From positions 11,053,373-11,117,372 of the forward strand of contig JAUZTB010000081.1 of assembly GCA_034780895.1 (NCBI GenBank): a stretch of 64,000 nucleotides of DNA, given 5' to 3'. This document shows positions 9,545 to 55,726 of the stretch, one piece after another (the stretch's first letter is position 1; the number at the start of each line of letters is the position of its first letter). The notes beneath the pieces were generated by a model that had not been told where the DNA came from, ran no database searches, and was given only the letters and a program-made list of their open reading frames with translations. The position numbers were made by a program, and so were the translations under genes. Source of the DNA: Rhynchobatus australiae (lineage: Eukaryota).

Positions 9545-9606
9545 GGATAATTCCCATCACTTTATTGTGCTCATTGCTCCCAGAGGGTTTCTCTGGCATA
9601 TAAATA
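9545..9606 (+). promoter_or_regulatory. Putative proximal promoter of unit 2 (CTCCCAGAGGG 9577-9587; TATAAATA 9599-9606)
   Basis: Canonical TATA box 78 nt upstream of the ATG; O/E-like site about 20 nt before the TATA. Confidence 0.55.
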
Positions 9607-9676
9607 AGACATAAATTTGAAAGCAAGAGATTTGTATATGTGTCCCACGCACCAGAACCGTGGCTTCTCTGCGATT

Positions 9677-9746
9677 ATGGGATTGGCTGTAAAGTTACTG
9701 ATTCAGCTTATTTACTACCATATTCTTGTCATAATTGGCGTTCCTG
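9677..9746 (+). CDS. GPR139-like GPCR, exon 1 (unit 2)
   Basis: MGLAVKLLIQLIYYHILVIIGVP + G|GTAAGC; region 9425-10830 is paralogous to 2260-3790. Confidence 0.8.
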
Positions 9747-10947
9747 GTAAGCAAGTTATAGAATGTAAAATATACATATATTGCCACATATTTTCATACC
9801 TGGACAACTGTCGTCGAAAATGCCTGAACGTGTTTCCAGTTTCTGCCAAATTGGTAAAACAAATTTCCTGCTGAAACAAATATTTCTCTGGCCATTGATC
9901 ATTACGAATATCGTTGTGACATGCCGTATGTGGCTCACCTTCGAATTTGATTACGAAATCATTCCAAAAATGCATGAATAATTTTTCCAGTTTGCCCCAA
10001 AAAACGAAATTCGTATTTTCTGCTGTATTTATGACCAAATAACGGAAGGAAAGTGGCTCTTCACAAACGATGTCTACTCCTTCGTATTAGCAGCTCGGCC
10101 CTTTCACCATCCTTCCAAAAGCTCTAATTAGCTCGAAGCCGACTGTCTCTCCAGCAGATTATTTGCTGTTCCAGTTTCCAGCATCTGTCGTGTCGTGTTT
10201 CCAAACCTAATTTGCTACCCATGTGCGTGAAAGAGAAGCCGATTAATAAGGTAACACAAATGCTGCAGCCCTGCACACCACACCGCTTGTAGTTTCACCG
10301 TTTCCACTCCTCCAATCATCAGAATGGATGATTGCAAACCACATTGTCACTCATAATCTTGTCTGTTTATATTTTATTCCATTGGCAATCGGGCTTACCT
10401 TTGCACACATAATCTTGTCACACATATTCCAAGGTTGTTTCGCTGCAATCTTTTTTTTTTAAATTGTACCTGCAGCAGAAGACAGGCAGGCATCGTCTGG
10501 AAATTTGCAATTCCCAGCCGATGCCATTTACTCTCAGTAACTGCAGAGGCGTTGATTACTGTCCAGTCGGATGCCTACATGGTGACAGGTAAAAAAATCA
10601 TGTCGTCATTTCGCGATTATATGTATGCAGTATATACACATATTCAGTTTCCTGCACACAGGCAAGTAGCTAAGGGAAAACCCTCATATACAGCCGTTCT
10701 TTTAGAACGCTAATACGCGTAAAGATGTCTTCCATCGCAAAGCGATCAATTTTATTATTTATCCCACGTAACATTATCGTCAATTTTTTTCAGGAACATT
10801 TCTGTGAAGGATATAATTCCAGAAGAATTTTATTTTAATTGGTCGTGNNNNNNNNNNNNNNNNNNNNNNNNNNNNNNNNNNNNNNNNNNNNNNNNNNNNN
10901 NNNNNNNNNNNNNNNNNNNNNNNNNNNNNNNNNNNNNNNNNNNNNNN

Positions 10948-11272
10948 CAACACTGAAAAGAGTCAGACAGATCAAGAGATTGAAAACAGAAGGAAATCCA
11001 TAATCTTATTGCTGGCAATATCTGGAAGTTTCATTTTATTATGGGCAGTAAATTTTGCCAGCTTCATCGCTCCCTATTTTACAGATAATCAATTGATGAA
11101 CTCCGAGCATAATGACATTTTCGCCATTGTGGAAGAAGTTGGTTATCAGTTAAGATTTTTAAGTACTTGCACGAACGCATTCATTTATGGTGCTTCCCAA
11201 AGCTGTTTCAGAGAAGAACTGATGAATATGATTAAACGTCCCCTTGCCTTAATTGCAAAAATATTTAAATAG
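10948..11272 (+). CDS. GPR139-like GPCR, 3' part of exon 2 (ICL3-TM6-TM7-C tail); 5' part lost in gap 10848-10947
   Basis: Open frame NTEKSQTDQEIENRRKSIILLLAISGSFILLW...LSTCTNAFIYGASQSCFREEL...IFK*; AATAAA at 11482. Confidence 0.85.
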
Positions 11273-52780: not shown

Positions 52781-53482
52781 GGACGAAAGGGACTGTATGC
52801 AAACAAAGTTACTGTAGCACTTAATTTGAGACGCAGACATATAAATCTGCAAAATGCAATTTCCTTCGGTATCGTCTTCATTTCTAACATTTGCTTGGAT
52901 GTTTAAATTTTTAAAAAATAAGCAACAGCAAGCAGCTTTTCTTCGAAAATGAAATACGTGCATTTGCTTTGTTTTACTGAATTAAAAATAAGAACGGCCG
53001 TAGAAAATGCTGAACATACATGACGTACTCGGACGCTTTTGGGAAGAGAGCACCTCTTCAGGTTGATGATCGTTCATTGGGGCTGGAGAAAAAGTTCAAA
53101 CGAACGTGATGTGATTTTCAGAAAATAGGTTGTGCATGCTGCATGAAAGTCATTACTTTGTCTGATAGATGCCAAGAATGCGGGGAAATATAAGTTATGT
53201 TACTGTCAACTGATAGAGTAGGTGTTGTCTTATAAATCGCGCTTAATCTCTCTGCAGGAGAAAGAAAGTGGGCGGCAAAAACTTAAGTTCTAGTAAATGA
53301 GATGGAATTGCAGTTACAGGGGAAAAAAGGAAAAAAAATCGAAACACTCAATAGTTGACGCAATACAGTGGAGATAGAAAACAGAGCTAATGGCGTAGGC
53401 TGATGACCGATCCTCGGATTCTGTATGTTATGATGCAAGCGGAAAAAAACTCGTTGTTGGAAATTGTCGAATTCATTACCCA

Positions 53483-53505
53483 AGGGTTAGGGTTAGGGTT
53501 AGGTT
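53483..53505 (+). repeat. Short (TTAGGG)n tract
   Basis: agggttagggttagggttaggtt. Confidence 0.75.
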
Positions 53506-55639
53506 ATCCGCCTATCGTCCACATACCGAGAGATCAGAGCAGGACTGTGAGTGGAATTGGAAACAGAATGCTCAATGTTTATCCTGCGGACTTCACAATT
53601 GTGTTCGCCAAAACAGTAAAATAGTTCACTGCAGACAAGACCACATTTTCATAAATAAGTTTAGCATAGTAAATTCGAAGTACATGTTAATACCTGCTAA
53701 ATCTAAGGGGCTTGCTGGGTCTGCTTGGGTAGTGTAAATACCACTAGTAAAAATACAGGTGGAAGGTCTCGCGGCTCCATGGTGAAAGGCCGAAGAAGGT
53801 GAAGGTTTGCTTGGGATTGAAGAGCGAAACAGAGTATCTGAAAGGGGACCAGAGGGACCGAATGATAGAGTCATCACTTACGTAAATAAGAGGCTGATGG
53901 GTGTAAAGGGTGAATCAATTGAATCTCTGTCGTGTTCTGGAATAGAGGAATGTTAGGACAGATGCAGAGACGAAGAAATGGAATCGACATGTTCTGATAT
54001 ATTAAGGTCTGGACAAAGCGAATGTACGGTGAATTAAAAATGAACTATTCTGGAAGGTCTAAGTATATTTCGTCAGCAGAAGTGTGAAAAAGATGATAAA
54101 ACTGGGGAATGCACTTAGAACTAACGGGAAGCTGGGAAATGCCTAGTTAAGGTGACAATTGCAGTTTCTGGAATTATAACCTATTATTTGAGATGCAAAT
54201 AGAGTATTCGAAGAAAAACAAGGAGATTGGATGCATGAAATAAGCTTAGGAAAATTTAAAACCAGATTTGCAGAATTTTGAGACCAAGTGTGAGAACAGA
54301 ATCCAACATGAATACAGTCATCAATGCACCTGTATTGATATCACAGAGTTGACCTTAGTCGGTCACTGAGATGTACAAGACAGATACTCTGCATTATTTC
54401 CACAACGCCCATCCTGGCCTTATTTTCAATTTGCACTCATTCTATTTGGCAGCAGGAGAACTCTGCCTTGCGTCGCCTTCGGAAATGCCTGTCTAAGCTT
54501 ACAGGATAGGTGGTGATTACATTTGATTCTACCATCTCCTCTGCTAGCGAATATTAGATATCGACCACTCCCGGTATCAGCGAAAGAACGGATCTTCGAT
54601 TTATTTTCAAATCTTCCTTCCTCTCGCTAAAAATCTGTGCCCTCTTGTTTTTGATGACATGACATCTCTCATAATTTCCGGAGTATTTTATTCTACACCA
54701 CCATTGTTGGAGGCAAACAGGCCATACGCCTTATTCACCAACATACTTAACACAGTTGCCAACTTCGTGGTCATCCGATGTCTAAAGATTTTCACCCCAA
54801 AAGCCCTGAGAGTAAGTGTAGAAATCACACTATGCCTGTGCTGCAAAATATAGTCGGTGTGCCCTTCAGAAATCAAGTTAAACCTTGCCAATGAATGTAC
54901 GGAAAAGAATCACTTGAGGGAGAGCGCCAACATTTCAAATTACACATCTGTCTTCATAGAAATTAATATAGGGGTGGACGGCATCATTTGTGTGCATATC
55001 CCATGTGTGACATCAGTGATTGTTGTCAAAAATGCAATTTATTCCGAGTATTTTCACCCAAAAATAAGCTTTAGTGTTCTGTCACTAGCCTAATACCACA
55101 ATACCACTTTCATCCAGATTGAAAGTTCAAAGTTCATTACTATAAGTCGGTATGGTTTATTAACTATTACTGACAACCGTAGCCATCTGGAAAACTAACA
55201 ACCAGTTCTGGAACGACTGTGATCTATACGCTTCTTCTGTAAACTCTTCCCTCATAAACTCCAATACCATACTTCTATTTTACACATCAAATCATGTTGT
55301 TTTGTTTTGCTGGACGCGATATTTCTTGAAAATTATCAAACCACATCGTTATCCGAATATTTCATTTGGTTAAAGGGCATTTTGAATTTGGATGTACATT
55401 ATAATATTCAAATGATACGTGCTGAAATGATAGAAGGTGTACATTAGCTCTCACTGAAAATAACCATTAAAACATTAGATAAATGGAAACGATATTTATT
55501 AAATTGAAACTGTTCTGAAAGGAAGATGTAATAAATCTTCTTGCTCCGGTCTGGTGCTTCAGTTGTTGAAGGGAATAAATGCTAAACCATCTGTTTTCAT
55601 CTTATCCCTTTAAAGGTGAATAGTGGAAGACGTTAGACT

Positions 55640-55726
55640 AGCCTAATTGATGTGGACAAGTAACTGAATAATTACAGTCGTCTTGCGTGCTGATTTAACC
55701 CTGGAGATTTCTCTCAGGTATAAGTA
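55640..55726 (+). promoter_or_regulatory. Putative proximal promoter (TAATTG 55644, TAATTA 55669, CCCTGGAG 55699, TATAAGTA 55719)
   Basis: Conserved motif order; TATA 76 nt upstream of the ATG. Confidence 0.55.

Follow-up and report, generated by a model that had tools for sequence, protein, structure and literature searches.

A selected promoter-like block in a GPR139-like receptor cluster of Rhynchobatus australiae resembles smell-receptor promoters, hinting at a role in the sense of smell

A cluster of two-exon receptor genes

The window analyzed here is a stretch of 64,000 nt from a Rhynchobatus australiae contig. The receptor gene copies in it were named g1 to g3, d4, d5, g6, and g7 (Table 1). 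Subfamily A consists of g1 and g2, and the subfamily-B set contains g3, g6, and g7, which have an intact exon 1, together with the dead copies d4 and d5. "Intact" is used here for exon 1 only and not for the whole gene. The original prediction spoke of an intact exon 1, and this does not extend to the genes as a whole: the copy starting at 55795 is frameshifted, N gaps interrupt the second exons of those at 9677 and 45694, and the window shows no exon 2 for the copy at 2515, where it is either in a gap or deleted. The TM7 frameshift in g7 is a recent loss or an assembly error. Only g3 shows a complete ORF in the window. Among the dead copies, d4 has no exon 2 between its exon 1 and the next copy, and a further copy has lost its promoter, exon 1, and most of its intron in a deletion whose junction lies between 24613 and 24730. 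No flanking genes were found in the 64-kb window.

Table 1. Features of the receptor gene cluster, in positions of the window
Feature	Position	Strand	Remarks
g1 promoter block (subfamily A)	2383..2465	+	TAATT 2386; O/E-like TCCCTGGAGG 2416-2425, then TTTC
g1 TATA position	2437	+	Degenerate, TACAATT
g1 coding exon 1	2515..2584	+	23 codons, phase-1 GT donor
g2 promoter block (subfamily A)	9545..9627	+	TAATT 9548; TCCCAGAGGG 9578-9587; TATAAAT 9599
g2 coding exon 1	9677..9746	+	
g2 exon 2, open 3' part	10949..11272	+	TM6 to stop; remainder inside N gap 10848-10947
g3 promoter (subfamily B)	15225..15328	+	TAATTA 15225 (second), TAATT 15250, ACCCTGGAGA 15279-15288, then TTTC
g3 TATA position	15300	+	TAGAAAT
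g3 initiator candidate	15325-15326	+	CA
g3 coding exon 1	15378..15447	+	
g3 exon 2	19355..20271	+	Joined to exon 1 gives 328 aa, GPR139-like 7tm_1
Exon 2 of another copy	24794..25643	+	Frameshifted
d4 promoter remnant	34574..34666	+	TAATT 34574 and 34599 and TATAAAT 34638 retained; 11-nt deletion at 34621/34622
d4 exon 1	34716..34785	+	CTG in place of start codon, GG donor, frame otherwise open
d5 promoter remnant	35881..35962	+	TAGTT 35884; GCCAAGGAGA 35913-35922; TATA lost
d5 exon 1	36012..36068	+	In-frame stop, 13-nt deletion, no GT donor
d5 exon 2	from 38751	+	Degenerate
g6 promoter block	45563..45644	+	TAATT 45566; ACCCTGGGGT 45595-45604, then TTTC; TATAAAT 45616
g6 coding exon 1	45694..45763	+	
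g6 exon 2	49532..50046	+	Open as far as N gap; dN/dS 0.20 vs g3
Degenerate exon 2	51650..52400	+	No promoter or exon 1 found upstream
g7 promoter	55644..55747	+	TAATTG 55644, TAATTA 55669, ACCCTGGAGA 55698-55707, then TTTC; TATAAGT 55719
g7 coding exon 1	55795..55864	+	
g7 exon 2	57849..58750	+	10-N gap at 58426; 2-nt frameshift in TM7 near 58640; dN/dS 0.21 vs g3 before the N gap
Eighth promoter copy, distal flank only	63872..64000	+	nhmmer E 4e-6; window ends before cassette

Judged by their sequences, the genes are two-exon GPR139-like class A GPCRs and not olfactory receptors. The coding sequence of the window genes is split by a phase-1 intron after codon 23. Only 7tm_1 passed the Pfam cut-off in two window peptides and seven homologues; the olfactory receptor (OR) family of Pfam is named 7tm_4. 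ORs are also marked by four signature motifs, MAYDRYVAIC, PMYxFL, KAFSTCxSH, and PxLNPxIY, and none of 239 homologues carries any of them. FTFDRF in TM3 is present in 201 of these homologues and N[TA]xIY in TM7 in 234. The proteins are 321-335 aa class A receptors without a Pfam hit at E ≤ 1 to a V1R profile or a class C ectodomain, as would be required of V1R/ORA and V2R/OlfC, respectively. Human GPR139 was the best solved-structure match (E 2.7e-8; E 7.8e-14 in a second search), and no TAAR, a group whose closest kin are aminergic receptors, was among the matches listed in either search.

Identity to elasmobranch proteins annotated as "probable GPR139" reaches 78%, and among the matches listed 110 of 120 were named, all from elasmobranchs. 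The window genes share the features of an elasmobranch GPR139-like expansion, including a short exon 1 ending in GxP. The matches listed form at least about 70 clusters in the shark Heptranchias perlo and at least about 65 in the shark Heterodontus francisci, and we found no paper on a large expansion of this kind in the literature searched. The family forms tandem arrays and species-specific clades with many pseudogenes, which is the pattern of chemoreceptor families. Its members are colinear with vertebrate GPR139 from TM1 (YY..L...GLPAN) to TM7, and databases label most of them "probable GPR139." However, the similarity is distant (E 1e-8 to 1e-13), the N-terminus has only ~12 residues, and there are dozens of tandem paralogues per shark, whereas GPR139 is single-copy in bony vertebrates. 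GPR142 is another vertebrate orphan class A GPCR.

Layout and conservation of the upstream block

All five copies whose exon 1 is intact share a cassette with TAATT at -129 to -126 from the ATG, CCCwGRRG followed by TTTC at -98/-96, and a TATA position at -78/-76. The predicted O/E-like sites at 2417, 9579, 15280, 45596, and 55699 are correctly placed, lying 98 nt before the ATG in four copies and 96 nt before it for 55699. The upstream TAATT[A/G/C] motif proposed with them is invariant in all five. The TATA position was likewise confirmed at -78 (-76 for the ATG at 55795), but a recognizable box is present in only three copies (TATAAAT, TATAAAT, and TATAAGT); it reads TACAATT above 2515 and TAGAAAT above 15378. 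The dead copy at 34716 retains a perfect TATAAAT. A second TAATT is found at about -152 in g3, g7, and d4. Local GC content is 0.46-0.50 at -125 to -76 versus 0.25-0.30 alongside.

Matches to the 8-mer show no enrichment in the window (10 versus 8.05 +/- 2.98 in shuffles); what goes beyond chance is the fixed position of the site and its slow evolution. Since the cassette copies are paralogues, the motif represents a single event in their ancestor and not five. Persistence across "two divergent subfamilies" had been put forward as well; a quick tree, built without bony-vertebrate GPR139, places both in a single clade of the ray lineage, so the persistence is not deep.

Compared with its flanks, the block is the more conserved part in subfamily B. 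With block limits and motifs picked after the alignment had been inspected, the 82-nt block evolved at 0.45x the flank rate in the three intact copies, the value also found for their coding exon 1 (0.45), and at 0.86x in the two dead copies. Likelihood-ratio tests gave p=7e-5 for block versus flank and p=0.032 for intact versus dead, with the 11-nt deletion left out of the count. Among g3, g6, and g7, 59 of 82 block columns are invariant versus 296 of 631 in the flanks (binomial p=4e-6); this fraction of 0.72 compares with 0.57 for the best of 28 near-flank windows and 0.60 for the best of 123 far-upstream windows. Purifying selection thus acts on the block where exon 1 is intact, and it is relaxed in the dead copies. 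Because it is slow in the former and decays towards the neutral rate in the latter, the block is most likely a selected proximal promoter.

Within the intact B copies, the 21 motif positions evolved at 0.24x (p=4e-4). The O/E positions alone gave 0.24x (p=0.013), TAATT and TTTC had a rate of 0 (p=0.007 and p=0.012, respectively), and for TATA taken alone the test fell short of significance (p=0.19). Outside the motifs the block is constrained as well, at 0.52x (p=6e-4); the comparison of this part with the motifs is one of rates and not a direct test. Windows of 30 nt across the block are 0.67-0.73 invariant, so that constraint is spread out with no peak on the motifs. A conversion tract from the coding exon is disfavored, since the UTR that separates it from the block stays close to background (0.55-0.74). 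The subfamily-A pair showed no excess conservation of the block (65/83) over the upstream flank (102/129), and the flanks of all copies align at 60-66%.

The site is indeed lost above 34716, through the 11-nt deletion, and altered above 36012, where it reads GCCAAGGAG. Drift alone gives both losses with P=0.63, and we rejected them as proof of an O/E site.

An invariant CA at -53/-52 is a candidate initiator. The block is likely to be the core promoter. TBP would sit at -78 and transcription would begin close to the CA, leaving a ~50-nt unspliced 5' UTR. No conserved splice acceptor was found in the 135 nt before the ATG, in contrast to the exon-2 acceptors. We rejected a reading of the block as a splice acceptor, as AG follows TTTCTCT in only two of five intact copies. 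As for RNA elements, there was no Rfam match in the window and no inverted repeat common to the three promoters examined. To look for the motif in other species, a profile built from three open promoter frames was run on 1.84 billion proteins for gene models reading through the promoter; it returned one match (P0121), a spurious summed match to a bacterial-looking repeat protein. Of 239 homologues, 21 carry N-terminal extensions, which get no further than the UTR or, judged by eye for P0018, about the TATA position, and none reaches the O/E site.

Candidate factors and alternative readings

We scored O/E likeness using printed consensus strings and not a weight matrix, with the core TCCCYNGRGA taken from the V$NOLF consensus (PMC3247239). 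The likeness is moderate overall: three of five sites differ from the core at one base, and two (g2 and g6) at two, the weakest match being TCCCAGAGGG in g2, on the minus strand. A one-mismatch site occurs in 5.9% of random 140-nt windows, in 2.3% together with TAATT, and in 0.07% with a downstream TATAWA as well; a core at the two-mismatch level of g2 and g6 is present in 32% of random 80-nt windows. In dead d5, a site with a single mismatch lies at another position, -87. Using a crude score for the full 22-nt consensus, no intact copy was outstanding (p 0.09-0.60), and the best matches in g6 and g7 fall off the aligned site. The terminal T and A of TCCCNNGRGA occur together in no copy, and the invariant TTTC, which also fits an NF-kB-like site, falls outside the O/E consensus. 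The factor assignment is weaker than the original prediction implied. Consensus strings for AP-2, Ikaros, octamer, DICE, and Pax5 gave no consistent match at one position.

The reading we prefer is that each tandem GPR139-like gene would have its own compact ~80-nt proximal promoter directly before coding exon 1. CCCwGRRG, some 45 nt above the start, would be the site of an Ebf (O/E) dimer, and TAATT, 25-26 nt further up, that of a homeodomain protein of the Lhx2/Emx2 type; we regard this pair of factors as moderately probable. Such a promoter would drive the genes in neurons of the olfactory epithelium, probably microvillous ones, as in mouse OR and V1R promoters. By analogy with those promoters, the case for a homeodomain, Ebf, and TATA promoter driving a family of chemosensory receptors in such neurons is evenly balanced.

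It is less likely that the same promoter serves non-olfactory neurons or sensory cells (cutaneous, solitary chemosensory, somatosensory, or habenular), with Ebf acting beside POU4 or a LIM-homeodomain protein. Such a programme could come from the ancestral GPR139 or could parallel the Mrgpr family, which expanded in rodent sensory ganglia. A TG(A/C/G)ATAATT element upstream in four of five intact copies resembles a POU4F site, and human GPR139 is the best solved-structure match. In zebrafish, gpr139, the nearest named vertebrate relative, is habenular, and both it and pou4f1 are enriched in the habenula (PMC13606746). However, printed BRNF, BRN5, and OCT1 strings were not above background in intact copies (p 0.11-0.83), and it is hard to see why a brain nucleus should call for dozens of birth-and-death paralogues.

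We consider an immune or otherwise inducible TATA promoter quite improbable. Here an NF-kB/Rel-like site would overlie the CCC element, or EBF1 would act as in B cells, where EBF is active, and the genes would encode receptors for chemoattractants or microbial products. The invariant G.G.TTTC aligns to V$NFKB (bgggntTTCC) at -94/-95 (-92 in g7) in all five intact copies, and TTTC is among the elements without change in the intact B copies. The last C of TTCC is absent in four copies, however, and scores of this size often arise by chance (p=0.34 in four copies, 0.03 in g6). NF-kB also leaves the invariant CCC and TAATT unexplained, and dead d5 retains the kB-like bases.

Very unlikely, in our view, is a functional core promoter run by other factors, with the O/E and homeodomain likeness a coincidence. 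The evenly spread constraint, the imperfect O/E matches, and the 262 TAATT in the window would all suit it, but the motif positions are the slowest (0.24x versus 0.52x) and the joint arrangement is the one seen in 0.07% of simulated sequence. That no promoter lies here at all, the likeness being due to shared ancestry or gene conversion or the block being an intron end with the TSS at a distant non-coding exon (candidate, a TGAC(T/G)TCATAAAT block ~2.2 kb upstream), would accord with the aligned flanks, the A pair, a far-upstream 30-nt window invariant at 23/30 among three units (best of 278), and the 5' non-coding exons of 37 of 39 mouse V1R genes (PMC3247230), but is highly improbable given the slower rate of the block in intact than in dead copies, a UTR at background, and no conserved AG with pyrimidine tract.

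Comparison with olfactory promoters

Homeodomain and O/E sites near the TSS are characteristic of mouse OR promoters (PMC3247239, PMC12547500, and PMC5318403). As in these, the window copies have a TAATT homeodomain core near an O/E-like site in five of five intact copies, less than 200 nt from the presumed TSS; the surroundings are AT-rich with GC raised locally, and the genes form a tandem birth-and-death GPCR cluster. The sites are more conserved than neighboring DNA in subfamily B but not in the A pair. Mouse OR promoters usually have no TATA box, and the OR coding sequence is a single exon (PMC5318403), whereas here both TATA and the spacing are fixed, the site is followed by an additional invariant TTTC, the promoter adjoins coding exon 1, the coding sequence has an intron, and the receptor is not an OR. 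The host lineage also differs, as shark noses are without ciliated OSNs and no expression of shark OR genes was found in them (PMC10116579). Greek Island OR enhancers carry a composite Lhx2/Ebf motif (PMC5608512), which involves the same two candidate factors at fixed spacing; unlike in these, where the two are juxtaposed, 25-26 nt separate the sites here, which lie within a promoter, and no enhancer was identified.

Cartilaginous fishes, although their noses are large, are reported to have the smallest vertebrate olfactory receptor repertoires, with a mean of 43.8 and a range of 20-62 (PMC10869828), and few GPCRs in general (PMC8455134). If the promoter is as it looks, counts of the shark olfactory repertoire are too low, and olfaction has taken in one more receptor lineage via the same cis-regulatory code. 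It is possible, though we hold it with some doubt, that the GPR139-like expansion is an unrecognized olfactory receptor family, perhaps the largest in sharks and rays, which would have originated from a GPR139-type peptide receptor, gained a homeodomain and Ebf promoter, and come to be expressed as one gene per microvillous neuron. If true, this would explain very large shark olfactory organs in the face of only 20-62 recognized olfactory receptor genes. One-receptor-per-neuron choice, as a further step, is a more tentative suggestion by analogy. In a catshark library from brain and olfactory epithelium, no GPCR was among the 50 most specific genes (PMC11979771), and the published supplementary tables searched had no rows for "receptor 139" or GPR139. 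If the genes are expressed elsewhere, the block would still be a defined 80-nt promoter of a large orphan receptor family.

Promoters of mouse V1R genes, a vomeronasal-type receptor family, are similar in having O/E-like sites near the TSS, found in 39 of 39 promoters examined, and promoter homology within subfamilies, though the receptors are unrelated and V1R genes mostly have 5' non-coding exons (PMC3247230). The TCTGG core of the V1R motif lies on the minus strand of the UTR in four of five intact copies here; it is also present in 62% of random mouse promoters (PMC3247230).

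Receptor gene array and family membership

The window sequence, a gapped draft with 14 N runs, carries class A GPCR genes of two exons each, arrayed in tandem with every copy on the + strand. Exon 1 is intact in g1 and g2 (subfamily A) and in g3, g6, and g7 (subfamily B), and two subfamily B copies, d4 and d5, are dead. The only complete ORF in the window is that of g3 (328 aa). In d4, exon 1 begins with CTG and its donor is GG, while exon 1 of d5 has a stop and a deletion and is without a donor. The copy at 24794 lost its promoter, exon 1, and intron through one multi-kb deletion, leaving the upstream flank joined nearly straight onto the 3′ end of the intron (24157–24730). 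Despite a 2-nt frameshift in TM7 (~58640), exon 2 of g7 has a dN/dS of 0.21, similar to g3 and g6. A 10-N gap upstream of this deletion (58426–58435) is shorter than the corresponding stretch of g3, and either feature may be an assembly error. Repeats of 94–98% identity lie next to N gaps (26415–27205, 46322–46972, 16106–16207 vs 17371–17471, and 47805–47923 vs 49190–49308) and are probably draft-assembly overlap artefacts. ORF fragments at 39500–40620 resemble a CR1/L2-type LINE reverse transcriptase.

Gene pieces and far-upstream block copies, in window positions
Feature	Position	Strand
Exon 1 ATG, g1	2515	+
Exon 1 ATG, g2	9677	+
Exon 1 ATG, g3	15378	+
Exon 1 ATG position, d4	34716	+
Exon 1 ATG, d5	36012	+
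Exon 1 ATG, g6	45694	+
Exon 1 ATG, g7	55795	+
Eighth copy, distal flank only	63872-64000	+
Exon 2 piece	10949	+
Exon 2 piece	19355	+
Exon 2 piece	24794	+
Exon 2 piece	38751	+
Exon 2 piece	49532	+
Exon 2 piece	51650	+
Exon 2 piece	57849	+
Far-upstream block	8501-8530	
Far-upstream block	13170-13205	
Far-upstream block	32484-32515	
Far-upstream block	43412-43440	
Far-upstream block	62100-62130	

A Pfam search gave 7tm_1 as the sole family above cut-off, and the best solved-structure relative is human GPR139. The window genes fall outside the OR, V1R, V2R, and TAAR families, and four OR motifs were each absent from all 239 homologues. Querying a second time with a member of another subfamily found 2,653 relatives, and all 120 of those listed are elasmobranch. 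Names counted by hand in two match lists form at least ~70 clusters in Heptranchias perlo and at least ~65 in Heterodontus francisci, including some partial or mis-joined gene models. A quick tree was built from 79 rows, 4 of them window peptides and the other 75 drawn from the 120 homologues listed for the first query; Logan-only models were left aside, as were most that were partial or fused. The window peptides cluster with a protein of Hemitrygon akajei (SH-aLRT 99) within a batoid group, with g2 placed on 107 columns only; sharks form many species-specific subclades. Because the window peptides fall together inside the batoid group, the source species is probably of a stingray lineage and the two subfamilies probably arose recently. 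Of 52 standard full-length proteins among homologues P0001–P0120, none carries an N-glycosylation sequon within its first 24 residues. The most variable transmembrane positions (90 and 92 in TM3, 252 and 255 in TM6, P0001 numbering) may face the pocket, a sign, if so, of ligand diversification.

Selection on the probable promoter block

The conserved block before the ATG is very likely a real, selected promoter that is OR/V1R-like in design and sits on a family of non-OR receptors. The gene units are wholly paralogous, and their flanks, aligned at 60–66%, serve as a neutral yardstick (dS 0.46–0.50). Rates were tested on the five subfamily B copies using a star tree, with the block at −131 to −50, limits set after inspecting the alignment; the A pair was excluded because A–B flanks barely align (0.45–0.50). 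The proposed conservation beyond neighboring DNA was borne out in subfamily B, where the rate of the block relative to the flanks is 0.45x in g3, g6, and g7 against 0.86x in the dead copies (LRT: block vs flank, p=7e-5; intact vs dead, p=0.032). Coding exon 1 also evolves at 0.45x. Among g3, g6, and g7, 59/82 block columns are invariant vs 296/631 in the flanks (p=4e-6), and the best flank windows fall short of the block at 0.57 (best of 28) and 0.60 (best of 123). Motif positions are slowest (0.24x), and the rest of the block is also constrained (0.52x). Conservation of the UTR between the block and exon 1 is near background, which argues against conversion from the coding exon. No excess conservation of the block emerged for the g1/g2 pair, with 65/83 against 102/129 upstream and 585/813 in the intron. 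The original prediction also pointed to site loss in the pseudogenes; drift alone would remove the site from both dead copies with P=0.63, so this argument for the O/E-like motif carries no weight.

Far-upstream DNA of g2 (7982–9206) and g3 (12653–13886) is 82.6% identical, while the proximal promoters are only 67% identical. This contrast marks a mosaic unit, produced by conversion or by crossing-over that was unequal.

Layout of the cassette

All predicted site coordinates were correct on re-check. Intact copies have ATAATT at ~−129, CCC.G..G.TTTC from −98 to −86, ATA.AA.TAA at ~−79, and TTGA at −60; a CA at −53/−52 is invariant in 7/7 copies. A TATA had been expected before every intact exon 1, and one is recognizable in g2, g6, and g7, as well as in dead d4, but g1 and g3 lack a recognizable one. 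TATA at −78 followed by the invariant CA 26 nt downstream fits a core promoter, with a TSS predicted near that CA. No conserved AG with a pyrimidine tract was found before the ATG; the five true exon-2 acceptors have pyrimidine fractions of 0.69–0.88. Across the intact copies there are four upstream ATGs from −57 to −1, all in frame, and d5 has one out of frame.

The O/E(EBF)-like site was compared with the core consensus TCCCYNGRGA, from V$NOLF as printed for mouse OR promoters (PMC3247239). It holds with one mismatch in g1, g3, and g7 and less well, with two, in g2 and g6; random 80-nt windows contain such sites at ~3% and 32%, respectively. Among 10,714 simulated windows, 0.07% combine HD, O/E, and TATA in this arrangement. 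With a crude score for the full 22-nt O/E consensus, no copy stands out (p 0.09–0.60 among 632 windows). The window shows no enrichment of the 8-mer CCCWGRRG, with 10 matches where 8.05 are expected. Ebf plus homeodomain is still the reading, though not a unique one, that would account for the bulk of the invariant bases (CCC, G, G, TAATT).

Possible olfactory expression and its rivals

PMC3247239, PMC12547500, and PMC5318403 describe HD and O/E sites in mouse OR promoters as enriched, conserved, and functionally required. PMC3247230 reports O/E-like sites in 39/39 V1R promoters examined and O/E1–3 expression in the VNO. Sharks are described as lacking ciliated OSNs (PMC10116579), which does not exclude an O/E programme because V1R promoters and the VNO use O/E. 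The juxtaposed composite motif of OR enhancers (PMC5608512) differs in spacing from the cassette here. The top 50 catshark brain and olfactory genes include no GPCR (PMC11979771), and a snail "probable GPR139," a label only, is high in the osphradium (PMC10638732). By its sequence the block would work like an OR promoter, and expression of the family in olfactory neurons is the best single explanation, ahead of its rivals, with an even chance of being right. Whether sharks and rays possess a large olfactory receptor family missed by earlier counts could be tested cheaply; PMC10869828 credits cartilaginous fishes with 20–62 olfactory receptor genes, and PMC8455134 with a paucity of GPCRs. Our literature search, mostly outside subscription papers and so not establishing absence from print, found no paper on this GPR139-like expansion or its promoter.

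Less probably, the block would drive expression in sensory or neural cells of other kinds. In four intact copies the TAATT element has the form TG(A/C/G)ATAATT, which resembles POU4F sites; printed POU consensus strings did not score above background. Zebrafish gpr139 is habenular (PMC13606746). Immune use of the promoter is unlikely. In 5/5 intact copies the invariant TTTC, which falls outside the O/E consensus, lines up together with the G bases against an NF-kB consensus, each time at one shared position; the last C of that consensus is absent in 4/5. Somewhat less likely still is binding by other factors. That the block contains no promoter is very improbable given its rate.

A conserved UTR element, CCAGAA..GT, lies ~−27 to −18 before ATGs 2515, 9677, 45694, and 55795 (10-nt window identity 0.84); on the minus strand it reads TCTGG, which in mouse V1R promoter motifs is the weak core. 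A far-upstream paralogous block, TGAC(T/G)TCATAAAT..ATCCAG, CRE-like and TATA-like, lies ~2.2 kb upstream of the ATGs of g3 and g6. This block ranks first among 278 windows of 30 nt (23/30 invariant among three units), is degraded in the unit above d4, and is a candidate enhancer or alternative promoter.
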